The notes under the pieces are model-generated. The model saw nothing but the letters and a program-made list of their open reading frames with translations, did no database searches and was not told the origin of the DNA. A DNA stretch of 35,240 bases, taken from the IMG/VR virus record IMGVR_UViG_649989946_000003. One strand, written 5' to 3'. Shown here in pieces: positions 3,668 through 35,240 of the stretch; within the stretch, counting starts at the first letter, position 1, and each line of letters starts with the position of its first letter. This DNA comes from a virus. Taxonomy: Duplodnaviria; Heunggongvirae; Uroviricota; Caudoviricetes. Position numbers and translations under genes: made by a program.

Positions 3668-3734
3668 CCAAATAATGAAATTAATGGCGTAAACCCGCCG
3701 GGCATCCCTTTATCTAAATTCAGGAGAATTGATT

Positions 3735-3968
3735 ATGCGTAATATTGAAACCCGCACCACTCAAACCGGACCGGATGACGCAGGGCTTAATATTTTACTG
3801 ACAGAGGCTCGTCTGGAAGAACGCCGGGCAAGGGCTGAAGCAATGGCCGCTCGCCTTGATAGCCTGGCGTGTCATATCTCATCCCGCCAGCTAAACCACG
3901 TCGAAGCGGCAGAACTGCTGCGTGTGACTGCTGAAGCAATCCAGAACGAAGCGCAGGAGATCCACTAA
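3735..3968 (+). CDS. hypothetical early protein (77 aa)
   Basis: ATG at 3735 with AGGAGA 7 nt upstream (ORF-track start at 3729 is a TTG). Stop overlaps the next start. Confidence 0.6.
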   Translation: MRNIETRTTQTGPDDAGLNILLTEARLEERRARAEAMAARLDSLACHISSRQLNHVEAAELLRVTAEAIQNEAQEIH

Positions 3969-4195
3969 TGGCTGATGCAATGGATCTCGTACAGCAGCGC
4001 GTTGAAGAAGAACGCCAGCGCCATATCCGTGCTGCCCGTGCCAAAACGCCGGGCGTGTCCCGCGTGCTTTGTATTGAGTGTGAAGCACCAATTCCGCCAG
4101 CACGACGCCGCGCCATTCCGGGAGTGCAGCTTTGCATTACCTGTCAGGAAATCGCAGAGCTGAAAGGCAAACATTACAACGGAGGTGCTGTATGA
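3968..4195 (+). CDS. TraR/DksA-family C4 zinc-finger protein
   Basis: 75 aa with CxxC...CxxC (CIECEAPIP ... CITCQEIAE), the arrangement of phage/plasmid TraR-like proteins. Translationally coupled to neighbours (ATGA overlap at 4192). Confidence 0.7.
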   Translation: MADAMDLVQQRVEEERQRHIRAARAKTPGVSRVLCIECEAPIPPARRRAIPGVQLCITCQEIAELKGKHYNGGAV

Positions 4196-5049
4196 GCACC
4201 ATCCTGAAATGGGCGGGAAATAAAACCACCATAATGTCCGAACTGAAAAAACATCTTCCTGCTGGCCCGCGACTGGTTGAACCTTTCGCGGGTTCCTGTG
4301 CTGTGATGATGGAGACGGATTATCCCAGCTATCTGGTTGCGGATATTAATCCTGATTTAATCAACCTCTATAAAAAGGTTGCCGCTGATTGTGAATCGTT
4401 TATATCTCGCGCCAGAGTTTTATTTGAGATCGCAAACAGGGAGGTGGCTTATTACAACATAAGGCAGGAGTTTAATTACTCAACTGAAATTACTGATTTC
4501 ATGAAAGCGGTATATTTCCTGTATCTCAATCGTCACGGTTACCGTGGTTTATGTCGCTATAACAAGAGCGGGCATTTCAACATTCCCTACGGTAATTATA
4601 AAAATCCGTATTTCCCTGAAAAAGAAATTCGCGCATTTGCAGAAAAGGCCCAGCGAGCAACGTTTATCTGCGCCAGCTTTGATGAAACGCTGGCGATGTT
4701 GAAGGCGGGGGATGTGGTGTATTGCGATCCGCCGTATGACGGTACGTTTTCCGGCTATCACACTGACGGCTTCACTGAAGATGACCAGTATCACCTGGCA
4801 TCTGTTCTTGAACATCGGTCATCAGAAGGACATCCGGTCATTGTTTCTAACAGTGACACATCCCTGATCCGTTCGCTGTATCGCAATTTTACTCACCACT
4901 ACATCAAGGCAAAACGCAGCATCGGTGTGGCAGCTGGCGAGGGTAAATCAGCAACAGAAATCATTGCTGTTTCCGGGCCGCGCTGCTGGGTGGGATTTGA
5001 TTATTCGCGTGGCGTGGATAGTTCTGCCGTGTACGGAGTACGTGCATGA
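4192..5049 (+). CDS. dam: phage-encoded DNA adenine methyltransferase (Dam-like, N6-adenine)
   Basis: DPPY catalytic motif ([10 protein letters not shown]) and an N-terminal SAM-binding-like segment (EPFAGSCAV). Start taken as the ATG at 4192 ([11 protein letters not shown]); ORF-track start at 4132 is a 5' extension. Confidence 0.9.
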
Positions 5050-7460
5050 GTCATGCCGATATGAACAACTGCTGCGGCTTCAACGAAGCTGCCGCATCGT
5101 TCTCATGGAACAGCCCGAAAAAGGCCATTAACCCTTATCTGGACCCGGTGGAAGTTGCGCCGGTTTCTACGCTTTCAAACCTGATCACTCTGTACGCTGC
5201 CGATAACGAGCAGGAACAGCTGCGCCGTGAGGCGCTGAGTGATCAGGTCTGGGAGCGTTATTTCTTTAATGAATCCCGTGATCCTGTCCAGCGCGAAATG
5301 GAACAGGATAAGCTCATTAGTCGGGCAAAGCTGGCGCATGAGCAGCAGCGTTTTAATCCGGATATGGTCATTCTGGCGGACGTCAACGCCCAGCCTTCCC
5401 ATATCAGCAAGCCGCTAATGCAACGTATTGAATACTTCAGCAGCCTGGGCAGGCCAAAGGCTTATTCCCGCTATTTACGTGAGACGATTAAGCCATGTCT
5501 GGAACGACTGGAGCATGTACGCGACAGTCAGCTATCTGCATCTTTTCGCTTTATGGCAAGCCATGAAGGGCTGGACGGCCTGCTGATCCTGCCTGAAATG
5601 AGTCAGGATCAGGTGAAACGCCTGTCCACCCTGGTAGCTGCGCATATGAGTATGTGCCTTGATGCCGCTTGTGGCGATTTGTATGCCACCGATGACGTTA
5701 AGCCAGAAGAAATCCGCAATACATGGGAAAGGGTGGCAGCGGAAACCCTGCGTCTGGATGTCATCCCGCCTGCGTTTGAGCAACTCCGTCGGAAAAGAAA
5801 CCGCCGTAAACCCGTGCCCTATGAACTCATTCCGGGTTCGCTGGCGCGTATGTTGTGCGCCGACTGGTGGTATCGGAAATTATGGAAGATGCGTTGCGAA
5901 TGGCGGGAAGAGCAGTTGCGTGCTGTCAGCCTGGTCAGCAAAAAAGCATCTCCCTATGTCAGCTATGAAGCCGTGATGCATAAACGTGAGCAGCGCCGTA
6001 AGTCGCTGGAGTTTTTCCGTTCTCATGAACTGGTGAACGAAGACGGCGACACGCTGAACATGGAGGATGTGGTAAACGCCAGCAGCAGCAACCCGGCGCA
6101 TCGCCGCAATGAGATGATGGCCTGTGTTAAAGGCCTGGAGCTTATCGCGGAAATGCGTGGTGACTGCGCCGTTTTCTACACCATCACCTGTCCGTCACGT
6201 TTCCATTCCACGCTAAATAACGGCAGGCCAAACCCGACCTGGACCAACGCGACAGTAAGACAAAGCAGCGATTATCTGGTCGGCATGTTTGCTGCATTTC
6301 GTAAGGCTATGCACAAAGCCGGGTTGCGCTGGTATGGCGTGCGGGTGGCTGAGCCGCATCATGACGGCACAGTTCACTGGCACCTGTTGTGTTTCATGCG
6401 CAAAAAAGAGCGCCGCGCCATTACTGCATTGTTGCGTAAGTTTGCCATCCGTGAAGACCGCGAGGAGCTGGGCAATAACACGGGGCCACGCTTTAAGTCT
6501 GAGCTGATAAACCCGCGCAAAGGAACGCCGACAAGCTACATTGCGAAATATATCAGTAAGAATATTGACGGGCGTGGTCTGGCTGGCGAGATCAGTAAGG
6601 AAACGGGTAAATCCCTGCGTGATAACGCTGAATACGTTAATGCCTGGGCGTCTCTGCATCGTGTTCAGCAATTCCGCTTCTTTGGCATTCCGGGGCGTCA
6701 GGCTTACCGTGAACTGCGATTGCTGGCTGGTCAGGCGGCAAGGCAACAGGGTGACAAAAAAGCAGGTGCGCCGGTACTGGATAACCCGCGCCTTGATGCC
6801 ATCCTGGCTGCTGCTGATGCTGGTTGTTTTGCCACCTACATCATGAAGCAGGGCGGCGTACTGGTTCCCCGCAAATATCACCTCATCAGAACCGCTTATG
6901 AAATCAACGAAGAGCCAACCGCCTATGGCGATCACGGTATTCGTATTTATGGCATCTGGTCACCCATTGCAGAGGGCAAGATCTGCACTCATGCAGTGAA
7001 GTGGAAAATGGTTCGTAAGGCCGTTGACGTTCAGGAGGCGGCAGCCGACCAGGGCACTTGCGCCCCTTGGACTCGTGGCAATAACTGTCCCCTTGCTGAA
7101 AATTTGAACCAACAGGAGAAAGATAAATCAGCTGATGGGGACACCAGAACGGACATTACCCGCATGGATGACAAGGAGTTGCACGATTACCTGCACAGTA
7201 TGAGCAAAAAAGAGCGCCGGGAACTGGCAGCAAGGTTACGCCTGGTTAAACCGAAACGGCGTAAAGACTACAAACAGCGAATTACAGACCATCAGCGACT
7301 GCAGCTCGTCTATGAGCTGAAGTCCAGAGGATTTGATGGCAGCGAGAAAGAGGTCGATTTACTCCTTCGCGGCGGCAGTATTCCGTCAGGAGCAGGCTTG
7401 CGTATCTTCTATCGGAACCAGCGTTTGTGGGAAGATGATAAGTGGCGGAACCTGTATTAA
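5046..7460 (+). CDS. A: replication initiation endonuclease (P2 gpA / 186 A, rolling-circle initiator)
   Basis: 804 aa with an HUH-like motif ([10 protein letters not shown]) and a Tyr-containing motif (YIAKYISK). Start overlaps the dam stop (ATGA), RBS GGAG. Confidence 0.9.
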
Positions 7461-7508
7461 TTACGCGGATTAACAATTCGTGCTCTTAATAATACCAGGC
7501 ATATCAGG

Positions 7509-7538
7509 CTGATGAACGTAAAAAACGTTTTACATCAG
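7509..7538 (+). terminator. imperfect hairpin downstream of gene A (possible terminator)
   Basis: CTGATGAACGT ... ACGTTTTACATCAG inverted repeat followed by an AT-rich tract. Confidence 0.3.
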
Positions 7539-7551
7539 TAATATTATTATA

Positions 7552-7571
7552 TACTGTAAATATAAACAGTG
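7552..7571. promoter_or_regulatory. LexA (SOS) box
   Basis: tACTGTaaatataaACAGtg: CTGT (7554-7557), 8-nt AT-rich spacer, ACAG (7566-7569), a perfect match to the CTGT-N8-ACAG consensus. It sits about 40 nt upstream of the 7613 ORF and overlaps a -10-like TATACT. Confidence 0.65.
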
Positions 7572-7612
7572 GTTATGCATACAGTATTGCTTGTGGTGTC
7601 ATAGGAGGAAAA

Positions 7613-7801
7613 ATGCAGGACTATTTTTTGGAGTCTTTGAAGCTCCAGCGCATTGATTTTTTTCTTAAGCTTGTAGCGGCTAGTGAGTGTAGTGATGAAG
7701 AGAAGGGGCTGGCTCTGCAGTGGGTTTCAGAGCTGACTGATGAGTTGATGGCGAAAATTCGTGCCCATGAATATAACCGTGTAATGGATCTTCTCGGTTA
7801 G
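7613..7801 (+). CDS. small SOS-controlled protein (62 aa) in the position of the 186 tum antirepressor locus
   Basis: Strong RBS AGGAGG 4-5 nt before the ATG. Immediately downstream of the LexA box and of gene A, where 186 carries the LexA-repressed p95/tum unit. Sequence similarity to Tum could not be verified. Confidence 0.5.
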   Translation: MQDYFLESLKLQRIDFFLKLVAASECSDEEKGLALQWVSELTDELMAKIRAHEYNRVMDLLG

Positions 7802-7971
7802 CAGCAGGGGCGTTGCTGGCGTGAGAACTAGATTCTCGCGTCAGCAAGGTCAACTAAGGATTGAAACAGAAAGCCCTTGAAAACAGTAGCAAGTTGCCTA
7901 TTATCTACGCTGTATTTAATCGATGTCATTGGCTGTAATACCTTAAGTGATATTGAAAGGCGGTGTGGGGA

Positions 7972-9132
7972 ATGGATCTGGCTAAAGTTGAAGAACGCGT
8001 CCGAAGAGTCATAGGGACAATGGAGTCTGCCGAGCTTGATGAATATTTTTGGGGTAAGCGCTCGGGTTTGGGAGACTCATTACCTCCGTATTATCTCGTT
8101 TATTTTCTTTTGGTAGATTTACTGAAATTTAAAAATCGTGGGGTTGATGAGAAGATTTCTTTTTCTATCCCAGTCCGGATTGATGGGACTGTCGTAATTA
8201 TAGAACATCGTAAACTTGGTTTAGATATATTTATCAAGAGTGATGATGATATAGAGCAAGCTAAAACTGTTTTGAGACATATTTGCGCAGGGGTTAAAGC
8301 TGCTACGAATTTTTTTGACTCGCTTGCAGACAATGCAGCAAAGACTTCAAATCTAAATGTTAATAACAATGCTAATTCTCTTTATGATAGGTTTTGCTAT
8401 TTTTTAGAGCTATATAAACAGAAGCTTGATGAAGTTGCTGCTGGCCAAGAGTCTAAACTGGAAGTTGATAGTGAGTTTAAGTCTGATAATTTTTTCAGCC
8501 TGTTACAATCCACTTTTGAACAATCAAATAAGATAATTGAACTCCGAAGAGAGGCTATGTGGTTAGCAACGTCTGCAATTGAGTCATTTTTCAATTGGAC
8601 CGAGCATGTTTTCATTCTTATTGCAATCTTGAAGGGTGAGATAAAAAATGGGAATGATGTGGCTGATAAAGTTGGAAAAGAATGGGGGGAGAAATTCAAA
8701 TTAGCCATTGATATTAACTCTTCCAGTCTAAAATTGTTCTATGATCGTTTACTTATACTCAGAAAACAGGTGCGTAATTTTGTAGCCCATGGCGCCTTCG
8801 GTAAGGATGGGCAAGCATTGGAATTTCACTCAAGTGTAGGGGCTGTGCCACTATTGCTGCCTCATCGAGAAAATAAAGAACGTTTCAAGTTTGGAAATGG
8901 TGTGCATTTTTTGGCACCTGAAGCAATGCAATTAATTAACGATTTTCTTGAAAATTTGTGGCAGGGAAAACTGTCCCCAGCAAAAATTTATATTGAATCT
9001 GGATGTCCTTTAATACTATCTTACGTAACTAATGGAACCTATGCGGAGGCGATGAAATCAGAAAGGAATATGGACTTATTTGTTAATTACTTAACTCGTG
9101 AGATGGATAATGCCGCAAACATGGATTGGTAA
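7972..9132 (+). CDS. AT-rich cargo protein (386 aa) with an HEPN-like Rx4H motif; candidate abortive-infection/defence effector
   Basis: Long ORF of visibly lower GC than the phage core. ATG at 7972 (in-frame GTG at 7963). Motif R-N-F-V-A-H at 8773-8790 (LRKQVRNFVAHG) resembles the HEPN catalytic motif; no Walker A, so not Old-like. Confidence 0.6.
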   Translation: MDLAKVEERVRRVIGTMESAELDEYFWGKRSGLGDSLPPYYLVYFLLVDLLKFKNRGVDEKISFSIPVRIDGTVVIIEHRKLGLDIFIKSDDDIEQAKTVLRHICAGVKAATNFFDSLADNAAKTSNLNVNNNANSLYDRFCYFLELYKQKLDEVAAGQESKLEVDSEFKSDNFFSLLQSTFEQSNKIIELRREAMWLATSAIESFFNWTEHVFILIAILKGEIKNGNDVADKVGKEWGEKFKLAIDINSSSLKLFYDRLLILRKQVRNFVAHGAFGKDGQALEFHSSVGAVPLLLPHRENKERFKFGNGVHFLAPEAMQLINDFLENLWQGKLSPAKIYIESGCPLILSYVTNGTYAEAMKSERNMDLFVNYLTREMDNAANMDW

Positions 9133-9332
9133 ACTCTAGGTGTGGGTTACAAACACACAAAAAATCTTCCTGAGTTAGGTGTTATCCCAACCCAAGGCTG
9201 TGTCAGGAAAACTTCATATGGCGCATGAGATCGCATGATAGTATGACGATCGTTTTCGCTGATGCCAGCCAGAACTGGCGTGCTTTTGCTTATGTCATGC
9301 AGGTGCATGAAAACCACTATATAAAGTGGGCA

Positions 9333-9351
9333 GGCGTGGCGGGGATACGAT
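9333..9351. other. candidate cos site (cohesive-end sequence)
   Basis: GGCGTGGCGGGGATACGAT followed by TGCGCGC, resembling (from memory) the P2 cohesive end GGCGAGGCGGGGAAAGCAC + TGCGCGC. Lies in a GC-richer non-coding block between two AT-rich cargo genes, upstream of Q. Confidence 0.45.
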
Positions 9352-9432
9352 TGCGCGCAGAAGATTATTATTGGTACACTGTCGGTGACTCTCTACGCAG
9401 ATCTTACACATTAATTTCTAATGGGGCATGCT

Positions 9433-10233
9433 ATGATCTTTCTAAGTCATAATCACCGTGACAAAAGGTTTGTAAGTGTTATAGCGGAAAAACTAGCAGA
9501 TGTTTATGGGCGTGATAACGTATTCTACGATTCTTGGTCTATCCAACCCGGAGAGGGTATTATTGACAAGATGAATTTAGGAATGGAGAATGTATCGTTC
9601 TTTTTCTTTTTTGTCACAGAAAATAGTTTGGCAAGTAACATGGTAAAAATGGAATGGCAAAATGCTTTAATTAAGGCATCGTCCGGGAAGTGTAAATTTA
9701 TACCAATACGTTGCCAGAATATATCCTTGCCTGCTCTGCTTACTCAAACGCTATATATTGATCTTTATTCGTATGGGATCGATGTGGCAATAAGACAAAT
9801 TATAGATGTCATTAATCAACAAAATACGTATATTCCTAATCCTGAGAAGTATTCAAACCTCTCCTATGATATTAAGGATGGTGATGGGGGTAAGATAGTG
9901 AAATTATCAGCAATGGATTTTTTAGAACCAATTGCTGATTTTATGATGATTATGGATAATACAATTAAGCATGATGATGTTGTTGTTATGGTCAATGGAG
10001 AAAGCACATTCACTCAGGGGTTTATTGAAAATGCATCTTTAGAAAATGGTATGAAAGTAAGTGGTGCCACTGTTGGCCTAAATCGGGGGTTAACACCAAC
10101 GATGCCAATGTATGTTTCTCTTAGGTTAAAGGATGGTTCACCTTTGAATATATTTGCGGTGCTACATCGAGTAAGTACCGAGCGTTATGCTCCTATACCA
10201 CATAAAGCCGATGATGCCTTTAGAGTAAAATAA
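9433..10233 (+). CDS. TIR-domain protein (266 aa): N-terminal TIR domain plus about 130-aa C-terminal domain of unknown function
   Basis: N-terminal block IFLSHNHRDKRFVS...VFYDSWSIQPGEGI...FFFFFVTENSLASNMVKMEWQNALIKA matches TIR hallmarks, including the conserved Glu in the S..W..E region (codon 9652-9654). AT-rich. ATG at 9433 with a G-rich RBS. Confidence 0.75.
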   Translation: MIFLSHNHRDKRFVSVIAEKLADVYGRDNVFYDSWSIQPGEGIIDKMNLGMENVSFFFFFVTENSLASNMVKMEWQNALIKASSGKCKFIPIRCQNISLPALLTQTLYIDLYSYGIDVAIRQIIDVINQQNTYIPNPEKYSNLSYDIKDGDGGKIVKLSAMDFLEPIADFMMIMDNTIKHDDVVVMVNGESTFTQGFIENASLENGMKVSGATVGLNRGLTPTMPMYVSLRLKDGSPLNIFAVLHRVSTERYAPIPHKADDAFRVK

Positions 10234-10242
10234 AAAGCAATA

Positions 10243-10268
10243 TGGTGGCTATATAATTAAGGCCACCA
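10243..10268. terminator. hairpin between convergent TIR gene and Q (bidirectional terminator candidate)
   Basis: TGGTGGC (10243-10249) / GCCACCA (10262-10268), 7-bp stem with AT-rich loop and T/A-rich flanks. Confidence 0.4.
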
Positions 10269-10277
10269 ATTTATATC

Positions 10278-11306
10278 TCATAAACAATAGGATGAAAATG
10301 CAATAACTTTCTCACCCAGCCAATGGTTTAACTCCTCCATGCGTTTCTGTAATGGCAAAAGTTCATTGCGCACAAACACATTTGCGGCCTTCTCCACATC
10401 CCCAAACCCTCCAACATTATTAGGCATAATCCCCATCATTTGCGGCGGCACGCGGTGCGCAGCCATCATGTCATCGCGGCTCACGTTCTTGATATTCAAA
10501 AACTCATCCTTCGCCGCCACCTCTGACAACGGGATAATCTGAAGCCCGTCCTTTTTGCCGTTAGGCGAGTACATAAACAGGTTGCGGAAGTTACCCGGAC
10601 CTTTGGCACTTTTCATTGCATTGCGGAGGTTGTTCACGTCCTCCTGGTTCTGCGCAGCATCGGTCATGTACATGATGAAGCCTGCATGACTACCGTTAAT
10701 GTAATACTTGCGGCGGAACAGCGTGGCGGACTCATTGAGCAGGGCGGACGGAATGGCAGAAAGATAGCCGGGCAGGCCGTAGATCTCCTGGTTAATGTCC
10801 GGTTCCATCAGATGAAAAATGCTGCCTTTCGTGAACTGATACGGCTGGGTTGTCATACCGTATTGCACAAACCAGTAGGTATCCAGGTCTAACCCGCGTC
10901 GGGTGTATTTTGCCAGAGCAGGCTCAAGGGCGATAACTTCACCGAAGCGGTTCGTGCGTTTCTCCAGGTAGGCGTTACCAAATACCAGATAGTCCTGCAC
11001 AAAACGTGAAAAAGCCTGCTGGCTGAGCAGCGGGTGAGGGATGTAGGTACTGGTCAGAATGTTGCATTTCACCGCAATTGGTGAACTGTGATGCACGGCG
11101 GCGCGGAAGGTGCGCGCCAGTCCGTCAAAGCTTACTGGCGGCTCATACCAGCGATCTGTCTGTACGCATTCCACATAGTCCAGCAGTTCTCGGCGGTCCA
11201 GAACAGGAACGGGATCGCCGAAGCTGAATGCTTCGGCTGTAGTTTGACTTTTAAGCTGGATCTGTTTCGTCGCCGCAGCGCGGTTCTTCTTACTCTTTCC
11301 CATCAA
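10278..11306 (-). CDS. Q: capsid portal protein
   Basis: 342 aa, position and size of P2 gpQ, translationally coupled downstream of the terminase gene. Confidence 0.9.
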   Translation of the reverse strand: MMGKSKKNRAAATKQIQLKSQTTAEAFSFGDPVPVLDRRELLDYVECVQTDRWYEPPVSFDGLARTFRAAVHHSSPIAVKCNILTSTYIPHPLLSQQAFSRFVQDYLVFGNAYLEKRTNRFGEVIALEPALAKYTRRGLDLDTYWFVQYGMTTQPYQFTKGSIFHLMEPDINQEIYGLPGYLSAIPSALLNESATLFRRKYYINGSHAGFIMYMTDAAQNQEDVNNLRNAMKSAKGPGNFRNLFMYSPNGKKDGLQIIPLSEVAAKDEFLNIKNVSRDDMMAAHRVPPQMMGIMPNNVGGFGDVEKAANVFVRNELLPLQKRMEELNHWLGEKVIAFSSYCL

Positions 11307-13069
11307 AAAATCTCCACAATATTGCTGGTATTGGCGGACTCGCCTTGCAGCGGTTCGTTAAACAGTGCGTGCATCGTTGCCCAGGCCAGATCCGCATGGC
11401 TGGCTTCTTCGCTGCGGCTGGCTTCATAGGTCGGGCGGTTGCCACTGGCGGTGGTGGAGCGACGGATTGCCATAAAGGACTGCGCTATGTCGGTGTGTCC
11501 GGCGTCAAACTCCAGACGGCGGTGGCTGATAATGTCGTAGGCCTTGAGTACCAGGGCGTTTTTAACGTTGGGGTTGTAGACAAACTCCCGGACGGCAGGA
11601 AAGAATGCTTTCACGTTCTCGTAAACCCCGTGGCCGACGCCAGTTGAGTCGATGCCGATGTATGTCACGTTGTACTGTTCGGTCAGTTTTTTGATGGCGT
11701 CAGCCTGGGCGCGGAAGTCCATCCCGCGCCACTGGTGACGCTCAAGAATGCGGAACTTACCGCCCGGCACGGCTGGCGGTGCCACCACCACGCACCCGGC
11801 GCTGTCGCCGTTCTGCGTACCTTTTGCCGGGTCATAACCGATCCACACCTCGCGCCAGCCAAACGGGCGCAGCGCCAGTGCATGAAAGTCGGTCCAGACT
11901 TCCCAGCTGTCCACCATGCACGCCTGCAGCTCGCTGAGCGGGAACACGGACGCGAGATCGTCCACAAACTCGCACATCAGCAGGTTCTGGTATTCGTCCG
12001 GGCTGTACTCCATGCGCAACTGGTCAAGGTCGAACAGGTTACAGCCGCCGCGCACCGCATCTTCCACGGTGACTATCTGGCGGTACTGCCCGTCTGCGCA
12101 CAGCAGGCCGGGGGCCAGATTGCGGTGGGACAGGTCGATGTCCACCTTATCGGCTTTGTTGCGCCCTCGGTTGAACAGCGCACCGGACCAGAACGGATAA
12201 GCACTGTGTGTCAGGCTGGATGGCGTGGAAAAATAGGTTTGTCGCCATTTTTTGTGAATAGCCATACCGGAAGCCACTTTGCGCAGCTCCTGGAATTTCG
12301 GTATCCAGAAATATTCATCCAGATACAGGTTGCCGTGGTAACTCTGGGCCGTGCGGGCATTGGTGCCGAGGAAGTAAAGCGTGGCCCCGTTAGGAAGCAC
12401 CATCGGATCGCCTTTCAGCTCCACCTCCACTTCTTTGGCGAAGTCGATGATGTACTGCTTAAAGACGTGGGCCTGTGCCTTACTGGCGGAAAGGAAAATC
12501 TGGTTACGCCCGGTAAGCAGGGCGTCAATCAGGGCTTCACGGGCAAAGTAAAAGGTCGCGCCGATCTGGCGTGACTTCAGCAGATTGCGGATGCGGTTGG
12601 TTTTTCCGGCTTCCCACCAGTGGCGCTGGTAGTTGAACATGGAGGAATGGAAGATTTCTTCCAGCTTCTCAATCTGCTCATCGGTGAAAACATTCTTTTC
12701 CGGCTGACGGCGTGGGCCTTTGTTGCGGTTGGCGACGTTTGGGTTTAAGTCGGCTTCGTTGCCGCCATTGTTAAACTTGCCGATCCGCGCGTGGCGCTCC
12801 GACTGGCGCGCCAGCAGGTCAATCTCTTTGAAATCTTTCCCTTCTTTGTGCTCCTTCATGATGAGCTGGCAGTAGCGTGCGGCGGTGGTGAGCTGCATCT
12901 GATCCAGCGGCCCATAGTCACCCCACTTGTCGCGTTTTTTCCAGCTGTGAACGGTTGCAACTTTCTCGCCCAGCATTTCAGCTATGCGGGCTACGCGGTA
13001 TCCCTGAAAGTACAGCAGCATGGCCTGCCGACGGGGATCGAGATCTGCGGGTGTCAGTGTGGTGTTCAT
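11303..13069 (-). CDS. P: terminase large (ATPase) subunit
   Basis: 588 aa, size and position of P2 gpP, divergent from the O operon. Confidence 0.9.
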   Translation of the reverse strand: MNTTLTPADLDPRRQAMLLYFQGYRVARIAEMLGEKVATVHSWKKRDKWGDYGPLDQMQLTTAARYCQLIMKEHKEGKDFKEIDLLARQSERHARIGKFNNGGNEADLNPNVANRNKGPRRQPEKNVFTDEQIEKLEEIFHSSMFNYQRHWWEAGKTNRIRNLLKSRQIGATFYFAREALIDALLTGRNQIFLSASKAQAHVFKQYIIDFAKEVEVELKGDPMVLPNGATLYFLGTNARTAQSYHGNLYLDEYFWIPKFQELRKVASGMAIHKKWRQTYFSTPSSLTHSAYPFWSGALFNRGRNKADKVDIDLSHRNLAPGLLCADGQYRQIVTVEDAVRGGCNLFDLDQLRMEYSPDEYQNLLMCEFVDDLASVFPLSELQACMVDSWEVWTDFHALALRPFGWREVWIGYDPAKGTQNGDSAGCVVVAPPAVPGGKFRILERHQWRGMDFRAQADAIKKLTEQYNVTYIGIDSTGVGHGVYENVKAFFPAVREFVYNPNVKNALVLKAYDIISHRRLEFDAGHTDIAQSFMAIRRSTTASGNRPTYEASRSEEASHADLAWATMHALFNEPLQGESANTSNIVEIF

Positions 13070-21515: not shown

Positions 21516-23053
21516 GCACAAAATTTTATACCCTGCTGACGGATATTGGCGCGGCGAAACTTGCCAGCGCCGCCGCGCTCGGTGTGCCGCTAAAAATTAC
21601 CCATATGGCGGTCGGCGATGGCGGCGGAGTATTGCCAACGCCAGACTCAAAGCAGACTGCACTGGTAAATGAGAAACGCCGGGCTGCGCTGAATATGCTC
21701 TATATCGACCCGCAGAACAGCAGCCAGATTATTGCCGAACAGGTGATCCCTGAAAACGAGGGCGGTTGGTGGATACGTGAAGTGGGCTTGTTTGATGAGT
21801 CCGGGGCATTGATTGCCGTGGGCAACTGCCCGGAAAGCTATAAGCCGCAACTGGCTGAAGGTAGCGGGCGCACTCAGACCGTGCGCATGGTGCTGATTAC
21901 CAGCAGCACGGACAATATCACCCTGAAAATCGACCCTGCCGTAGTGCTGGCAACCCGCAAGTATGTGGATGACAAGGCACTGGAGCTGAAGGTGTACGCG
22001 GATGATCAGATGGCAAAACATCTTGCCGCACCGGACCCGCATTCACAGTATGCACCCAAAGAAAGTCCGACGTTTACCGGGACACCCAAAGCGCCAACGC
22101 CAGCCGCAGGGAATAACACCACGCAGATTGCGACCACCGCGTTTGTTCAGGCGGCTCTGACGGCTCTTATTAATGGTGCGCCAGCCACGTTGGACACACT
22201 GAAAGAAATAGCCGCAGCCATTAACAATGATCCGAAATTCAGTACCACCATTAACAATGCGCTGGCACTGAAAGCGCCGCTGTCGAGTCCGGCACTCACC
22301 GGAACGCCAACCGCACCTACTGCGGCACAGTCGGTCAACAATACACAGATTGCCACCACGGCATTTGTGAAATCGGCGATTGCGGCAATGGTGGGTTCTG
22401 CACCTGCGGCACTGGATACACTGAACGAACTGGCGGCAGCGCTGGGGAATGACCCGAACTTTGCCACGACAATGCTTAATGCGCTGGCAGGTAAACAACC
22501 GCTGGACAATACGCTGACTAATTTGAGTGGAAAGGATGTAGCTGGTCTTCTCACATACCTTGGTTTGGGAGAAGGTTCGGCATTACCTGTTGGTGTACCT
22601 GTTCCATGGCCTTCAGCCATTCCGCCGACAGGCTGGCTGAAATGCAACGGTGCAGCTTTTTCTGCTGAAGAATACCCGGAACTGGCAAAGGCTTATCCGA
22701 CAAATAAATTGCCTGATTTACGTGGTGAGTTTATTCGTGGCTGGGATGACGGGCGTGGAGCTGACAGTGGTCGGGGATTATTAAGCTTTCAAAAAGCCAC
22801 TCTGGTTGAAAGTTTTGGTCTGGTCAGGTCACCAACCACTGGCTCTTATCGTCTGGTTACCAGACCGACAGAAACTGTTTCTGATAATACGTCTAACTAT
22901 ATGACGACTGATTATGATTCCCGTGAAGGTTTATATTCCTCTGCAACAGCATACCCCTCTATCGAATTGCCACCAACTGGAGCAGGCGCAGGGGCTGGTT
23001 TTAGGGTTCGACCAAGGAATATTGCATTTAACTATATTGTGAGGGCTGCATAA
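21512..23053 (+). CDS. H: tail fibre protein H (constant N-terminal part fused to the currently expressed variable C-terminal part)
   Basis: 513 aa; N-terminal virion-attachment region, tandem fibre repeats, C-terminal receptor-binding part. A hix-like crossover site lies inside the gene at 22549-22574. Confidence 0.9.
   Translation: MSTKFYTLLTDIGAAKLASAAALGVPLKITHMAVGDGGGVLPTPDSKQTALVNEKRRAALNMLYIDPQNSSQIIAEQVIPENEGGWWIREVGLFDESGALIAVGNCPESYKPQLAEGSGRTQTVRMVLITSSTDNITLKIDPAVVLATRKYVDDKALELKVYADDQMAKHLAAPDPHSQYAPKESPTFTGTPKAPTPAAGNNTTQIATTAFVQAALTALINGAPATLDTLKEIAAAINNDPKFSTTINNALALKAPLSSPALTGTPTAPTAAQSVNNTQIATTAFVKSAIAAMVGSAPAALDTLNELAAALGNDPNFATTMLNALAGKQPLDNTLTNLSGKDVAGLLTYLGLGEGSALPVGVPVPWPSAIPPTGWLKCNGAAFSAEEYPELAKAYPTNKLPDLRGEFIRGWDDGRGADSGRGLLSFQKATLVESFGLVRSPTTGSYRLVTRPTETVSDNTSNYMTTDYDSREGLYSSATAYPSIELPPTGAGAGAGFRVRPRNIAFNYIVRAA
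22117..22500 (+). repeat. tandem ~50-aa coding repeat inside tail fibre H
   Basis: Two copies of ...TQIATTAFV..A...GAPA.LDTL.E.AAA..NDP.F.TT..NALA.K.P... Confidence 0.5.
22549..22574 (+). repeat. left inversion crossover site (hix-like)
   Basis: TCTCACATACCTTGGTTTGGGAGAAG, inside H. Confidence 0.6.
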
Positions 23054-23655
23054 TGGATAACGCCATATTAAATAGCGAGATTATCGCCACCAAAGCAGGG
23101 AATATTACCGTCTATAACTATGATGGTGAAACTCGAGAATATATTTCCACTTCAAATGAATATCTTGCTGTTGGCGTCGGTATCCCTGCATATTCCTGTT
23201 TAGATGCCCCTGGCACACATAAGGCGGGTTATGCTATCTGCCGTTCGATGGATTTAAACTCATGGGAATATGTGCCAGACCATCGCGGTGAAATCGTCTA
23301 TAACACCGAAACGGGAGACGCAAAAGAAATCACAACTCCGGGTGATTACCCCGAAGAAACAACCACTATCGCCCCGTTAACGCCATACGATAAATGGGAT
23401 GGTGAAAAATGGGTGACAGATACTGAGGCACAATACGGTGCCGCAGTAGACGCGGCAGAAGCACAGCGCCAGTCACTGATTGATGCAGCAATGGCTTCCA
23501 TCAGTCTGATTCAACTGAAATTGCAGGCCGGACATAAACTGACGCAGGCAGAAACAACCAGACTTAACGCTGTGCTGGATTACATTGACGCGGTGACGGC
23601 AACAGATACCAGCACCGCGCCGGATGTCATCTGGCCTGAACTGCCGGAGGCGTAG
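23053..23655 (+). CDS. G: tail fibre assembly chaperone G
   Basis: 200 aa; start overlaps the H stop (TAATG). Confidence 0.85.
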   Translation: MDNAILNSEIIATKAGNITVYNYDGETREYISTSNEYLAVGVGIPAYSCLDAPGTHKAGYAICRSMDLNSWEYVPDHRGEIVYNTETGDAKEITTPGDYPEETTTIAPLTPYDKWDGEKWVTDTEAQYGAAVDAAEAQRQSLIDAAMASISLIQLKLQAGHKLTQAETTRLNAVLDYIDAVTATDTSTAPDVIWPELPEA

Positions 23656-24070
23656 GCCATTCAATATCTGGCGCACCGGAAGTATCGATCAGCTCCAGTG
23701 CGTCCAGATAATCCAGCCACAAATTATATTGCGCCAGTTCATCACCTTTCAGACGACCAATAGCGGCTTTGCCGGGCCATTGCTTACTGTTCATGTATTC
23801 GTTGGCCTGGTTAATTAGTAGCTGTCTTTCTGATTCAGTAATTTCAATAAGTTCTTCATGCGTGGGTGGAGGAATATCTGCCCACGCGGGCTGCCCATCA
23901 CCTCCGGCAATACGGATTTTTCCTTGTGGCGGTTCAGCCATAAATTCACTGATAATATTTTGATTCACCTCTTTAGCATCTGATAAATCCCATCCCTCTG
24001 ATTTATATTTATCAATCATATCCACAGGGAAAAAAGCATTATGCCTTGCGCTATAAACATATTCGTTCAT
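23627..24070 (-). CDS. alternative tail fibre assembly chaperone (G')
   Basis: 147 aa from the ATG at 24070, convergent with and overlapping G; conserved C-terminal Tfa-like motif (YNLWLDYLDALELIDTSGAPDIEWP, compare G: LNAVLDYIDAVTATDTSTAPDVIWP). Confidence 0.8.
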   Translation of the reverse strand: MNEYVYSARHNAFFPVDMIDKYKSEGWDLSDAKEVNQNIISEFMAEPPQGKIRIAGGDGQPAWADIPPPTHEELIEITESERQLLINQANEYMNSKQWPGKAAIGRLKGDELAQYNLWLDYLDALELIDTSGAPDIEWPTPPAVQAR

Positions 24071-24090
24071 ATAAATCACCCTTAATAAAA

Positions 24091-24464
24091 TTACTCACCA
24101 ACAGCCCACCAACTGTAATTCATCGATACTGTGGAACTGGTTGATGCAGTTCTGTAAGCGGAATTAAAACCGGTTAATGTTGGACCTTCTGCGGTCATCA
24201 CGAATCCCCGTCCAGCACCTAAAGGTGCACCACCATCACCAGAATGAGTAAGCATGGCGCAGTCCACTTTTTTAGGAAAAGGGATGCTGAATGTAATTCT
24301 CATTGTTTGCGTCGATAATGTCGGCGTAACCGCACCTCGACCATATTGCAGGATTTTACCGTTGGGTAATTTCATCCATCCATCACCACTGGCAAAAGAA
24401 GCCATATCCGGTATCTGATTTTCCCCTGTTCCCACATCCCGTTTTGCCGCTTCTCCCAAACCAA
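24091..24464 (-). CDS. alternative tail fibre C-terminal segment (promoterless; expressed only after inversion)
   Basis: Minus-strand ORF ending at 24091, entering at the right crossover site where the shared GLGE junction codons lie. Confidence 0.65.
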
Positions 24465-24475
24465 CGTTTAAGAAA
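24450..24475 (-). repeat. right inversion crossover site (hix-like, inverted relative to the left site)
   Basis: Reverse complement reads TTTCTTAAACGTTGGTTTGGGAGAAG. Confidence 0.6.
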
Positions 24476-24531
24476 ATGCAGCGATTACGGCTAACTGGCA
24501 TCATCCCCTATTTTTATTCAGGGAGATGATC

Positions 24532-30979: not shown

Positions 30980-32076
30980 ATTTCAGCTCTGAACTGCTTA
31001 ACAAAGGCAACAAAACTCCCGCATTCAGCATCAGTATTGAGGGCAGGGATATCACCACTGTGCTGGATAACCGCCTGATGAGGCTGACGCTGACGGATAA
31101 CCGGGGCTTTGAAGCGGACCAGCTTGATCTGGAGCTGGACGACGCCGATGGAAAAATAGCGCTGCCGCGCCGTGGTGCGGTCATTACGCTGGCGCTGGGC
31201 TGGAAGGGGCAGCCGCTTTTCCCGAAAGGGGCATTCACGGTGGACGAGATTGAACACACTGGCGCACCGGACCGCCTGACTATCCGGGCGCGAAGTGCTG
31301 ATTTTCGTGAAACGCTGAATACCCGCCGTGAAAAGTCGTGGCACAAGACCACTGTCGGGGAAGTGGTCAAGGAAATAGCCGCGCGTCACAAGCTGAAGAT
31401 GGCACTGGGTAATGACCTGTCGGATAAGCCCGTGGAACATATAGACCAGACTAATGAGAGTGACGGCAGTTTTCTGATGCGGCTGGCGCGCCAGTACGGT
31501 GCTATCGCGTCAGTGAAAAATGGCAATCTGTTATTCATCCGACAGGGACAGGGTAAAAGTGCCAGCGGTAAACCACTGCCGGTGATCACTATCACACGTA
31601 AGGACGGCGACAGTCACCGCTTTACCCTGGCAGATCGCGGAGCTTACACGGGCGTAATTGCCAGCTGGTTGCATACTCGCGAACCCTCGAAGAAAGAAAG
31701 CACCACGGTGAAGCGTAAGCGCAGGACTAAGAAGCAGAAGAAAGAGCCGGAAGCGAAGCAGGGCGATTACCTGGTGGGTACGGATGAAAACGTGCTGGTA
31801 CTTAATCGCACTTATGCCAACCGGAGCAACGCCGAACGAGCGGCGAAAATGCAGTGGGAACGCCTGCAACGCGGCGTTGCGTCATTCTCGCTACAACTGG
31901 CGGAAGGTCGGGCAGATCTCTACACGGAAATGCCAGTGAAAGTCAGTGGCTTTAAACAGCCGATAGATGATGCGGAATGGACCATTACGACTCTGACGCA
32001 TACCGTCAGCCCGGATAACGGTTTTACGACCAGTCTGGAGCTTGAAGTGAGGATTGATGATTTCGAAATGGAATGA
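30976..32076 (+). CDS. D: tail protein D (late control gene D)
   Basis: 366 aa, GTG start with GGGAGGG RBS, overlaps the U stop; P2 gpD position. Confidence 0.9.
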   Translation: MNFSSELLNKGNKTPAFSISIEGRDITTVLDNRLMRLTLTDNRGFEADQLDLELDDADGKIALPRRGAVITLALGWKGQPLFPKGAFTVDEIEHTGAPDRLTIRARSADFRETLNTRREKSWHKTTVGEVVKEIAARHKLKMALGNDLSDKPVEHIDQTNESDGSFLMRLARQYGAIASVKNGNLLFIRQGQGKSASGKPLPVITITRKDGDSHRFTLADRGAYTGVIASWLHTREPSKKESTTVKRKRRTKKQKKEPEAKQGDYLVGTDENVLVLNRTYANRSNAERAAKMQWERLQRGVASFSLQLAEGRADLYTEMPVKVSGFKQPIDDAEWTITTLTHTVSPDNGFTTSLELEVRIDDFEME

Positions 32077-32166
32077 TTCTTCGCAATGGAGAACTTTTAA
32101 GTTTGCAAAATGGAATAATGCGGTATCATTATTGTGAATTTAGCAAAAATGGGGAGAACTCGAAAA

Positions 32167-32385
32167 ATGATGATTTGCCCACTGTGTGGAAGTGCCGCCC
32201 ATACTCGCAGCAGTTTTCAGGTATCTTCATTGACCAAAGAGCGTTACAACCAGTGCCAGAATATTAACTGCAGCCATACTTTTGTTACCCATGAAACTTT
32301 TGTTCGTTCGATTGCAACGCCAAAAGAGTCAAATCCGGTTCAGCCGCATCCAATGAAATCAGGACAGGTGGCGCTCTCTCTTTGA
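32167..32385 (+). CDS. ogr: Ogr/Delta-family zinc-finger late transcription activator
   Basis: CPLCGSAAHTR...KERYNQCQNINCSHTF closely matches my recollection of P2 Ogr (CPLCQHAAHAR...KERYHQCQNVNCSATF). Last phage gene before the host junction. ATG at 32167 or 32170. Confidence 0.85.
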   Translation: MMICPLCGSAAHTRSSFQVSSLTKERYNQCQNINCSHTFVTHETFVRSIATPKESNPVQPHPMKSGQVALSL

Positions 32386-32464
32386 CGCTGCCGCCATTTT
32401 GTCGCCATCGTTAAAAAACAGTGCTTCTAACCTCATGATTTTAAATAGAATAAATTTTAGGCAA

Positions 32465-32508
32465 CAAAAAACCCATCAACCTTGAACCGAAATGGCGGGG
32501 TTGATGGG
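32465..32508 (-). terminator. rho-independent terminator candidate for ybjL, at or near the prophage/host junction
   Basis: 10-bp stem CCCATCAACC / GGTTGATGGG (32472-32481 / 32499-32508) with a structured loop, followed on the minus strand by a U6 tract. Confidence 0.45.
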
Positions 32509-32620
32509 CTCCACAAAATGGGGACATCAAAGAAAAGCAGTGGCACTAATTAAGACTGATGCCCTGCGGAAAAGTTCTGCGGTTGTGCAAAAAAATTTCA
32601 TTTTCAGGGCAACTTCAGTT

Positions 32621-34306
32621 TTATCCTAATCCTGGCCATACCATGACGATGATTGTCCCTGCCAGCGTCAGCAGGACGTTGGCGATTGCATAGGTGCCCG
32701 CATAGCCCAGCGCCGGGATGTTACTGCGAGCTGTATCACTGATGATCTCCATTGCCGGCGCGCAGGTACGTGCGCCCATCATTGCGCCGAACAACAGCGC
32801 GCGGTTCATTCGCAATACATAAGCACCGAACAAGAAACAGATAACCACGGGCACCAGACTGACAATCAATCCGGCAATCAACATCTGACCGCCAATCGCG
32901 CCCAAGCCGTTATTAATACCGCTACCGGCGCTCAGACCAACGCCTGCCATAAACACCATCAAGCCGAACTCTTTCACCATGCTTAATGCACCCTGCGGAA
33001 TGTAACCGAAGGTCGGGTGGTTAGCACGCATAAAGCCCAGCATAATTCCGGCGAATAACAACCCGGCAGCGTTCCCCATGCCGAAACTGAATGTGCTGAA
33101 CTGGAAGGTGATCATCCCGATCATCAGCCCAATAACAAAGAAGGCGCAAAATGCCAGCAGGTCAGTGACCTGGCTGTGAATCGAGATAAAGCCGATGCGA
33201 TCGGCGATGGTTTTTACGCGACGGGCATCACCGCTGACTTGTAAAACGTCACCTTTGTTAAGCACGACGTTGTCATCTATCGGCATCTCAATCTGGCTAC
33301 GAATGACGCGGTTAAGGAAGCAACCGTGATCGGTCAACTTCAGTTGTGCGAGACGTTTACCTACAGCGTTATGGTTTTTAACGACCACTTCTTCAGTGAC
33401 GATACGCATGTCGAGAAGGTCACGATCGAAAACTTCTTTACCGTTACGGAAGCTGGGATCGAGTCGGGCATGGGCGTCGGGATAGCCTACCAACGCTATT
33501 TCATCGCCCATTTGTAGCACGGCATCACCGTCTGGATTTGCCAGAATCCCGTTACGTCGAATACGTTCAATGTAGCAGCCGGTTTGTCGATAAATACCCA
33601 GTTCACGCAGATTTTTGCCGTCGGTCCAGGCCACCAGCTCCGGGCCGACGCGATAGGCGCGGATCACCGGTAAATAAACCTTACGGTTGGCATCAGTGTC
33701 CAGGCCACGTTCGCGGGCGATTTGCTGGGCGCTGGTCTGTAAGTCCTGATGCTGCAATTTCGGCAAGTAACGCGCACCAACAATCAAACTCACCAGACCG
33801 ATTAAATAGGTTAAGGCATACCCGAGGCTCAGATTATCCAGTGCCAGTGAGAGCTGCCTGCTTTCCATGCCGGAATGACGCAGTGTATCGCCAGCACCGA
33901 CCAGAACCGGTGTCGACGTCATAGAGCCTGCTAACATACCGGCCGTCAGGCCAATATCCCAGCCAAACAGCTTACCTAACCCTAAGGCGATCACCAGCGC
34001 ACTGCCAACCATCACCAGTGCTAACATTAGGTAATTTTTCCCATCGCGAAAAAAAATGGAAAAAAAGTTCGGTCCGGCTTCAACCCCAACACAGAAAATA
34101 AACAGCATAAAGCCAAGATTAAGCGCATCGGTGTTAATGCTGAAATGTTGTTGGCCTAATAACAGCGATACGACTAAAACGCCAATGGAATTACCCAGTT
34201 GGATCGAACCAAGTCGTAACTTTCCGAGACATAGCCCAAGCGCGAGGACCACAAATAATAACAGAATGTAATTCCCATTTAACAATTCGGCGACGTTTAT
34301 ATTCAC
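32621..34306 (-). CDS. ybjL: host putative transporter YbjL (AAE-family permease with internal TrkA-C-like domains)
   Basis: 561-aa membrane protein recognised as E. coli YbjL ([30 protein letters not shown]...). Confidence 0.9.
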
Positions 34307-34575
34307 GGAGGCTAACTTCTTGTTTACTAGTAAGCTGTTGAAAGAAATGGTAATTTACGATAATGTTTTTTACCAGAATTCAGGGCGCAGATTCATTCAG
34401 CGCACCTAAACGATAGTAAAGTAACAATATATTTTACTAGTGTAATCACATTAGGTATCAACGGCTATATGAATTGCGTTGGCCTATATTAGCATGGAAT
34501 GCGAAGCGGCTTTATCTTACTGAACGCCACACTGGCGAAAAATGTGTTCGATAGACGCAGTGTCAGGAGGAACGA

Positions 34576-34953
34576 GTGAAACATAAACAACGTTGGGCGG
34601 GGGCAATCTGCTGTTTTGTCCTCTTCATTGTGGTGTGCCTTTTTCTGGCGACGCACATGAAAGGCGCTTTTCGGGCTGCCGGGCATCCTGAAATCGGCTT
34701 GCTATTTTTCATTCTTCCTGGAGCAGTCGCCAGCTTCTTTTCACAGCGTAGAGAAGTCCTGAAACCTCTTTTTGGCGCAATGCTGGCGGCACCCTGTTCG
34801 ATGCTCATTATGCGGCTGTTTTTTTCACCGACGCGCTCATTCTGGCAAGAGCTGGCATGGTTATTAAGTGCGGTGTTCTGGTGTGCGCTGGGGGCACTGT
34901 GTTTCTTATTTATCAGTAGTTTGTTTAAACCACAGCACAGAAAAAATCAGTAA
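34576..34953 (+). CDS. ybjM: host inner-membrane protein YbjM
   Basis: 125-aa hydrophobic protein between ybjL and grxA, as in E. coli K-12. Confidence 0.8.
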   Translation: MKHKQRWAGAICCFVLFIVVCLFLATHMKGAFRAAGHPEIGLLFFILPGAVASFFSQRREVLKPLFGAMLAAPCSMLIMRLFFSPTRSFWQELAWLLSAVFWCALGALCFLFISSLFKPQHRKNQ

Positions 34954-34973
34954 AGCCCTCAACGCGAGGGCTT
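34953..34973. terminator. bidirectional terminator hairpin between convergent ybjM and grxA
   Basis: AAGCCCTC aacgc GAGGGCTT, 8-bp stem; A-run upstream gives a U-tract for the minus-strand transcript. Confidence 0.5.
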
Positions 34974-34982
34974 GTCAGACGA

Positions 34983-35240
34983 TCAGGCGTCCAGATTTTC
35001 TTTCACCCATGCAGCAAAATCGGTATAGCCGCCGATATGTTGCTGATCGACAAAAATCTGCGGCACGGTTTCTACGGGTTTACCTGCCTTTTGTTGTAGA
35101 TCTTCTTTAGTGATCCCTTCCGCACGAATATCTACATAGTGATACTGAAAATCATCGTGTTCATTGCTCAATTTCTCAGCCAGATCTTTTGCACGCACAC
35201 AGTAAGGGCAACCCGGACGACCAAAAATAACGGTTTGCAT
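34983..35240 (-). CDS. grxA: glutaredoxin 1
   Basis: 85 aa with the CPYC active site (MQTVIFGRPGCPYCVRAKDLAEKL...), complete; start codon is the last 3 nt of the window. Confidence 0.9.
   Translation of the reverse strand: MQTVIFGRPGCPYCVRAKDLAEKLSNEHDDFQYHYVDIRAEGITKEDLQQKAGKPVETVPQIFVDQQHIGGYTDFAAWVKENLDA

Follow-up and report, generated by a model that had tools for sequence, protein, structure and literature searches.

Single-protein HEPN nucleases are a recurring means by which prophages exclude competing phages, and to our knowledge the trigger and target are known for only a few of them (HepS, ApeA and RnlA). HepS, a single HEPN abortive-infection protein encoded by the Gifsy-1 prophage, forms a latent tetramer; once a phage tail-tip protein has opened it, it cuts the anticodon loops of tRNAs (PMC13043305). 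Here we analyse a 35,240-nucleotide DNA sequence from the IMG/VR record IMGVR_UViG_649989946_000003 (the whole of which we refer to as the window), a P2-like prophage, and concentrate on one of its genes, which encodes a protein of 386 amino acids. The protein is predicted to adopt a HEPN fold, carries a conserved R-N-x3-H motif of canonical form, is inherited as a single gene and lies in a mobile, defence-island context. We consider it to be, probably, a latent and self-contained prophage HEPN RNase that forms a single-gene abortive-infection or phage-exclusion module.

HepS is the best functional precedent for the 386-amino-acid protein. Both are prophage-encoded, occupy an accessory-gene position in a temperate phage, are single genes without a partner and carry an R-N-x3-H motif (R100, N101 and H105 in HepS), and the model of a constitutively made, latent oligomer that is opened by a phage protein could apply to both. 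They differ in architecture: HepS and its homologues are shorter than 250 amino acids and consist of the HEPN domain alone, whereas the 386-amino-acid protein adds an N-terminal domain of 125 amino acids, a loop of about 40 residues after the motif histidine (the post-His loop) and an ANMDW C terminus.

Other described systems share parts of this arrangement. RnlA and LsoA (RNase LS) also place an N-terminal TBP-like α+β domain before a C-terminal HEPN domain and have an anti-phage role on mobile elements. However, RnlA has two TBP-like domains and requires the antitoxin RnlB (PMC3710099), whereas the family described here has neither an accompanying antitoxin gene nor an RnlA Pfam match; the fold resemblance is weak, and the structural scores are too low for homology of the N-terminal domains to be claimed. 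Csx1 and Csm6 provide the sole recurrent profile similarity (Csx1_HEPN), and an insert directly follows the Rx4H motif in both Csx1 and our protein (PMC3710099), but the latter lacks a CARF domain, falls below the Pfam cutoff and has no cas genes among its commonest neighbours. AbiD/AbiF (Abi_2), AbiJ, AbiU2, AbiV and ApeA (HEPN_Apea) share the order of an N-terminal accessory domain and a C-terminal HEPN domain. These lactococcal-type HEPN Abi proteins and ApeA are likewise single genes found on mobile elements and in defence islands, and Abi_2 and HEPN_Apea genes adjoin some members of our family; unlike them, the 386-amino-acid protein matches no Pfam or PADLOC model, and its N-terminal domain is unrelated to the AbiJ-NTD and ApeA-NTD types (PMC3710099). 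HepT-type HEPN proteins have around 130 amino acids and are paired with a nucleotidyltransferase antitoxin (MntA), whereas the protein studied here has 386 amino acids, extra domains and no recurring neighbour. PrrC is a latent HEPN-type nuclease guarded by restriction–modification (PMC3710099), and PrrC and RloC are anticodon nucleases embedded in type I restriction–modification loci. Several members of our family recall them by their place at the 3′ end of restriction–modification operons of type I or type ISP, but they have no ABC-ATPase domain, and the window and most genomes have no adjacent restriction–modification system.

Fold and predicted catalytic motif

An original prediction, made from the letters of the window and a list of its open reading frames, had proposed that this gene encodes a HEPN-like protein with an R-x4-H motif about 270 residues into the chain. 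The reading frame and the motif are as described there: LRKQVRNFVAHG occupies residues 263–274 and is encoded by positions 8758–8793 (R268 codon, 8773–8775; H273 codon, 8788–8790), and R268-x4-H273 is the sole Rx4-6H in the protein. The prediction had also conceded that a short motif can arise by chance, and for a single sequence this concern is justified, as Rx4H appears in 29% and R[NDH]x3H in 4.6% of composition-preserving shuffles; a single occurrence is weak evidence for HEPN. We judge it to be non-random because of its conservation among homologues. In an alignment of 78 homologues with identities down to 20%, R268, N269 and E211 are 99% conserved, H273 is one of only four invariant positions (the others being G83, G274 and P293), and R268, N269, H273 and G274 are all within the 7 most conserved of the 386 positions. 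The pattern R[polar]xxxH is retained in 66 of 68 full-length representatives at 50% identity, the exceptions being one with serine for arginine and one that is frameshifted. It is not quite the only recognizable motif, as had been thought, since several other blocks are near-invariant: the N-terminal domain has LPPYYLVYFLL and EHRKFGLG, and further along the chain are WTEH (with E211 and H212), W238/K241, the post-His loop and the ANMDW C terminus. Among rare variants of the family (P0125, 633 amino acids; P0135, 500 amino acids; and P0143), one has an N-terminal extension of around 230 amino acids and one a C-terminal extension of around 70; in P0143, serine replaces the catalytic arginine (KQISNYIAHG).

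HEPN domains are built from two α-hairpins, with an insert between helices 2 and 3; the Rx4-6H motif ends helix 3, a polar residue (N, D or H) follows the arginine and a conserved acidic residue lies on helix 2 (PMC3710099). A single-chain AlphaFold2 model, built from 25 homologues (mean predicted local distance difference test (pLDDT) score of 83.3; predicted template modelling score of 0.71), follows this plan, with helices at residues 134–167, 174–220, 251–274 and 315–329 and short helices in an insert at 221–250. R268-N269-x3-H273 closes the helix at 251–274, with the polar asparagine after the arginine, and the acidic residue E211 sits on the helix at 174–220, outside any Ex3[KR] motif. 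The structures that match the model include HI0074 (score of 9.3) and two HepT-type toxins (8.8 and 8.7), as well as TTHA0636, YutE, AF0298, the sacsin HEPN domain, Cas13b, LsoA, Las1, Csx1 and Csm6. Structure prediction, in which the absence of a HEPN-like fold would have counted against the original prediction, therefore returned such a fold. On this model the 386-amino-acid protein is a HEPN-fold protein, an assignment that is made because of the fold, the position of the motif and its conservation, and not because of a family-level sequence match.

Profile searches against Pfam and the Protein Data Bank (PDB) had been proposed as a check. None of the HEPN-clan models of Pfam scored above its gathering threshold, the best being Csx1_HEPN with 14.5 bits against a cutoff of 23, and PDB sequence searches with the protein or with the 78-member profile returned only noise. 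Csx1_HEPN is nevertheless the only recurrent Pfam signal, covering residues 219–279 at sub-threshold level in 8 of the 78 members (E-values of 0.016–1); there is also one sub-threshold match to HEPN_Swt1 among them. PADLOC v2, NCBIfam and PHROGs gave no match to the protein. The lack of a HEPN-clan Pfam match above threshold points to a new family within the fold-level HEPN superfamily.

These results also bear on a very improbable alternative, in which the motif is a product of chance, the helical-bundle similarity is generic and the protein is not a HEPN nuclease. The frequency of Rx4H in shuffled sequences, the sub-threshold status of every Pfam HEPN match and a Foldseek comparison of the whole-chain model with the PDB, which gave no match at E ≤ 0.001 and only coiled-coil artefacts, are what such an explanation would lead one to expect; it does not account for motif residues that are among the most conserved of the family and lie at the canonical structural position.

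The original prediction had allowed for an N-terminal sensing domain of about 250 amino acids. That is too large, because the HEPN domain begins near residue 134; the separate domain comprises residues 1–125. Modelled alone, these residues form an independent, compact fold (pLDDT of 95.4) that we read as a generic TBP/KA1-like fold, with structural matches to KA1 domains, TBP, the TBP-like N-domain of RNase HIII, Med18/20, the U6-binding KA1 domain of METTL16 and RnlA. No CARF, SLOG, SAVED or Macro domains are among the structural matches. The N-terminal domain equals the nuclease in conservation (mean column identity of 48%), with G57, E60, K61, K81 and G83 near-invariant. Given this high conservation and the binding of nucleic acids by several of the matched domains, an RNA- or ligand-binding module is more likely than a fast-evolving sensor of phage proteins. 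After the motif comes a family-specific loop in which G274 and P293 are invariant and K278, H286 and G290 are at least 91% conserved; in the model, pLDDT is below 50 at residues 275–297 and 299–311. Together with the ANMDW tail, this loop is a candidate gate that may silence a nuclease without an antitoxin, although it could alternatively be a substrate loop.

For the favoured reading, a latent prophage HEPN RNase, we infer RNase activity, oligomerization, a trigger, a target and an abortive outcome as follows. The lysogen would produce the protein in a latent state. If other HEPN enzymes are a guide, this state would be a dimer or a larger assembly in which a pair of R-N-x3-H motifs makes up a single composite RNase site that needs no metal. 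An infecting phage would supply the cue that lifts the latency, and the enzyme would then cut host and/or phage RNA, with tRNA anticodon loops, mRNA or rRNA as conceivable targets, such that translation would halt before the phage cycle ends. The N-terminal TBP/KA1-like domain would be the likely ligand- or RNA-binding module, and the invariant, poorly modelled post-His loop the likely gate.

Several observations weigh against this reading. In addition to the Pfam and Foldseek results given above, a tblastn search of 50,697 deposited phage genomes did not find the family, and some homologues adjoin ordinary metabolic genes. The strong conservation of the N-terminal domain would be unusual for a sensor of phage proteins. 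Finally, around 40 residues beside the active site have pLDDT values below 50, so the geometry of the active site rests on a low-confidence part of the model.

Family extent and genomic setting

The gene lies in a low-GC island between the gpA replication endonuclease gene (5046–7460, plus strand) and the portal gene gpQ (10278–11306); the terminase gene is at 11303–13069, and it and the portal gene are on the minus strand. The GC content is 37.5% in the 386-amino-acid gene and 38.6% in the island (7790–10277), compared with 52.6% in the remainder of the window, in agreement with the earlier statement that it is far below that of the phage core. The insert between gpA and gpQ is variable, and two related prophages (L002 and L003) carry alternative inserts. 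Horizontal acquisition, which had been proposed on the basis of GC content, is thus borne out by a low-GC cargo island with alternative inserts in related prophages. The gpA–gpQ locus of P2-like phages is an established hotspot for anti-phage systems (PMC9122126; PMC13586616), and the protein, WP_032248694, is catalogued in Table S5A of Rousset et al. (PMC9122126). The features of the locus are listed in Table 1.

Table 1 Features of the HEPN cassette, the encoded protein and the adjoining TIR gene (window coordinates)
Feature	Position	Strand	Basis or detail
Low-GC mobile cassette bearing the HEPN gene, inserted in the P2 gpA–gpQ hotspot	7790–9222	+	blastn against other P2-like prophages; GC content
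Candidate sigma-70-like promoter, TTGAAA-16-TATTAT	7877–7904	+	10/12 match; 68 nt upstream of the ATG
Coding sequence, HEPN-family protein, 386 amino acids, WP_032248694.1	7972–9132	+	ATG at 7972; stop codon at 9130–9132
N-terminal α+β domain, residues 1–125, TBP/KA1-like (model)	7972–8346	+	Helix, helix, three-stranded meander, two helices
Predicted HEPN domain, residues ~134–345	8371–9006	+	H1–H4 plus helix 332–343; E211/H212 on H2; insert 221–250 with W238/K241
Predicted catalytic motif R268-N269-F-V-A-H273	8773–8790	+	C-terminal end of HEPN helix 3; conservation
Family-specific post-His loop, residues 274–311, GAFGKxGQAxxFHSxxGAVPLLLP	8791–8904	+	Most conserved stretch; lowest model confidence
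Near-invariant C-terminal pentapeptide ANMDW	9115–9129	+	N383, M384 and D385 at least 91% conserved
137-bp junction common to both alternative arrangements	9223–9359	+	L002: follows the HEPN gene; L003: precedes the TIR gene
TIR_2-domain gene, 266 amino acids, separate cassette	9433–10233	+	Pfam TIR_2, E-value of 1.3e-22; independent distribution

Homologues form 1,245 clusters at 90% identity (E ≤ 1e-3), and an exhaustive profile search yielded 979 representatives at 50% identity, nearly all of which have 360–440 amino acids, align from end to end and have neither a Pfam domain nor an informative name. A set of 80 loci, with one genome per species, spans Alpha-, Beta- and Gammaproteobacteria, Desulfobacterota, Nitrospirota, Acidobacteriota, Chloroflexota, Cyanobacteria, Bacteroidota, Chlorobi, Actinobacteriota and a candidate phyla radiation genome. 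The distribution is patchy (the gene is present in 10 of 5,426 complete Escherichia coli genomes), and the family is rare on plasmids, with only 5 distant copies. The exact protein is listed in Table S10 of DefensePredictor as a ‘Predicted novel defense gene’, with a mean log-odds of 10.6 (range, 9.9–11.8), and the supplement of that study records an HHblits match to csm6/csx1 profiles with a probability of 56. Signature peptides of the family were not found in the DefensePredictor supplementary tables, including the sequences of validated systems, some of these tables being only partly covered. We found no experimental report on the protein; its accession is absent from the searchable literature, leaving the catalogue entry and the machine-learning prediction, and RefSeq labels WP_032248694.1 as ‘hypothetical protein’.

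To survey gene neighbourhoods, the genes at positions −3 to +3 were clustered in 88 loci, and 73 upstream and 69 downstream neighbours were scanned with Pfam. Neither approach revealed a partner gene that is shared beyond near-identical genomes, and no neighbouring open reading frame of any size is conserved across the 80 loci; the HEPN gene is a single-gene unit. The immediate neighbours are mixed, yet rich in conflict and mobility genes. They include the toxins RES (three times), Fic, HipA, PemK and BrnT, as well as a type ISP restriction–modification enzyme, Abi_2, HEPN_Apea, AAA_13, UvrD, reverse transcriptases, integrases, resolvases and transposases; no cas families are among the commonest neighbour families. 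Some homologues lie at the 3′ end of type I restriction–modification genes, either 12 nt after hsdR (Klebsiella, L004), overlapping hsdS by 4 nt (L057) or after YgjP (L071). The gene is often appended 3′ to other defence or toxin operons, without an obligate partner. The Abi-type defence role put forward in the original prediction fits the gpA–gpQ hotspot, these neighbours and the DefensePredictor result. Genes for a 557-amino-acid protein in E. coli and for 440- and 514-amino-acid proteins in Klebsiella-type loci, which lie downstream of the HEPN gene, were considered as a recurrent partner and ruled out, as they are mutually unrelated.

Members next to type I or type ISP restriction–modification genes occur in four Klebsiella loci (L004–L007, 1–7185) and in L055, L057, L019 and L071, and a functional coupling of the kind seen between PrrC and EcoprrI is possible in those genomes. 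Elsewhere, a homologue in Plastoroseomonas (L008, 7197–12325) stands beside a full queC/queF/queG/tgt/queA cluster and one in Thalassospira (L009, 9005–10381) beside a QueC-like gene of 458 amino acids. The queuosine genes may be neighbours by coincidence, but they deserve mention given that the protein may be a tRNA nuclease.

The neighbourhoods bear on whether the protein could instead be the toxin of a toxin–antitoxin or addiction module that stabilizes the prophage, with a protein or RNA antitoxin that has escaped recognition, rather than a defence against phages. We consider this unlikely. HepT- and RnlA/LsoA-type HEPN toxins are among the structural matches and homologues often adjoin HipA, RES, Fic, PemK and BrnT, but these neighbours are themselves toxins and not antitoxins, and the 80 loci contain no conserved neighbouring open reading frame that could serve as one. 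Within the cassette, no second credible open reading frame was found, and a search of the island for an antitoxin or regulatory RNA turned up neither Rfam matches nor tandem repeats, nor any inverted repeat of significance. In addition, none of the 78 family members matches the RnlA or HepT Pfam models, even at E-values of up to 1.

A role other than defence, in which a HEPN-fold protein for housekeeping or regulatory RNA processing, or for nucleic-acid binding, is passively carried by the prophage, is likewise improbable. High conservation along the entire chain, N-terminal domain included, and metabolic neighbours such as the queuosine genes (L008) would be compatible with a cellular role, and HEPN proteins that are not nucleases are known, such as MtlR and sacsin (PMC3710099). 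However, the patchy distribution in E. coli, the atypical GC content, the location in hotspots, islands and mobile elements and the high DefensePredictor score all count against such a role, as does the conservation of the catalytic R, N and H residues, which are tied to active RNases (PMC3710099).

This HEPN family is new and widespread, belongs to a functional kind that is well known and had already been flagged computationally as probable defence. With around 980 clusters at 50% identity in many bacterial phyla, it escapes detection by Pfam, NCBIfam, PADLOC and PHROGs, and its definition would fill an annotation gap in surveys of defence islands and of the P2 hotspot. The conserved N-terminal domain and the invariant post-His loop provide handles on how a HEPN RNase without an antitoxin stays silent. 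The advance is incremental and not conceptual, unless the link to the TIR gene considered below proves to be real.

The adjoining TIR gene

In the window, as well as in 3 complete E. coli genomes, a gene for a TIR_2-domain protein follows the HEPN gene after 300 bp on the same strand. The protein also has an uncharacterized C-terminal domain of around 140 amino acids. The TIR family has 945 matches at E ≤ 1e-5, of which the best 120 span 237–298 amino acids and mostly have around 260. CARF–HEPN effectors such as Csm6 and Csx1 are HEPN RNases that can be activated by nucleotides, and by that precedent the two genes could form a two-gene, Thoeris-like system in which a signal derived from nicotinamide adenine dinucleotide and made by the TIR protein on infection binds the N-terminal domain and switches on the HEPN RNase. 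This, too, seems unlikely to us.

The case against it comes mostly from the inheritance of the genes. Among the 10 E. coli genomes with the HEPN cassette, 3 have the TIR gene and at least 7 have the unrelated 557-amino-acid gene. Conversely, the TIR gene is present in 9 of the 5,426 E. coli genomes, 6 of which lack the HEPN gene and bear a divergently transcribed DUF4145 gene together with DinI. A further TIR-less arrangement of WP_032248694 is recorded in Table S5A of Rousset et al. In blastn comparisons, L003 matches the window at 7001–7789 and resumes at 9223, whereas L002 matches 7001–9359; one breakpoint is thus at 7789/7790, and the other, at 9222/9223 or 9359/9360, falls between the HEPN and TIR genes. 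The 137-bp segment that separates the two latter positions contains a terminator-like hairpin (9262–9281) with a T-rich stretch after it, and has the appearance of a recombination joint for cassette shuffling. In 80 diverse genomes, a hidden Markov model of the TIR family had no match less than 6 kb from the HEPN-family gene, and 11 TIR loci had no match to a model of the HEPN family. TIR homologues are often solitary, as in a lambdoid nin region, or lie beside transposases. Thoeris itself differs in that here the TIR and HEPN genes are not co-inherited and the HEPN protein has no SLOG, Macro, CARF or SAVED domain for binding a signal. The evidence is mostly against obligate coupling: the TIR gene is an independently mobile cassette and not an obligate partner of the HEPN gene.

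DUF4145 is itself a HEPN family (PMC3710099), and a neighbour of a Burkholderia TIR homologue has a weak DUF4145 match (E-value of 0.004); the TIR family is therefore found beside HEPN-type genes more than once. Besides the window, the positions concerned are 3676–4416 (minus strand) in L003 and 5114–5692 (minus strand) in L093. Because the TIR family recurrently adjoins three different HEPN-type neighbours, the idea of cooperation stays alive in a restricted form, for this prophage lineage: in a new type of TIR-signalling defence, a nucleotide made by the TIR protein would activate the HEPN RNase through a previously unknown TBP/KA1-like sensor, and the effector beside the TIR gene would be interchangeable among HEPN types (this family or DUF4145). 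We regard this as quite improbable. The TIR protein may act as a single-gene defence, or may have HEPN partners that can be exchanged. In L002, the place of the TIR gene is taken by the 557-amino-acid gene (5955–7628, plus strand; WP_032248695), which has no Pfam or NCBIfam match and is another cargo gene of the hotspot.

Other features of the prophage

Upstream of the HEPN coding sequence, an alternative GTG start at 7963 would give a protein that is 3 amino acids longer, but the ATG is favoured because homologues begin with MDL. The number of sigma-70-like sites in the promoter region is not above the shuffled expectation, and the site listed in Table 1 stays a candidate only. At the gpA-proximal edge of the hotspot, an open reading frame of 62 amino acids (7613–7801, plus strand) matches phrog_698 (E-value of 4e-36; WP_001154428) and is present whatever the cargo. 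It was ruled out as an antitoxin, and is a P2 backbone gene of unassigned role that lies outside the HEPN cassette.

Further stretches of low GC content (39–47%) occur outside the hotspot at 1000–2500, 22500–24500 and 31500–35000 of the window and may hold further accessory cargo. In E. coli S43 (L001, 6805–7488), a prophage with an identical HEPN and TIR island is degraded just beyond the portal gene, where pseudogene fragments joined to a tail gene stand in place of the terminase gene; the island survives in a decaying prophage.

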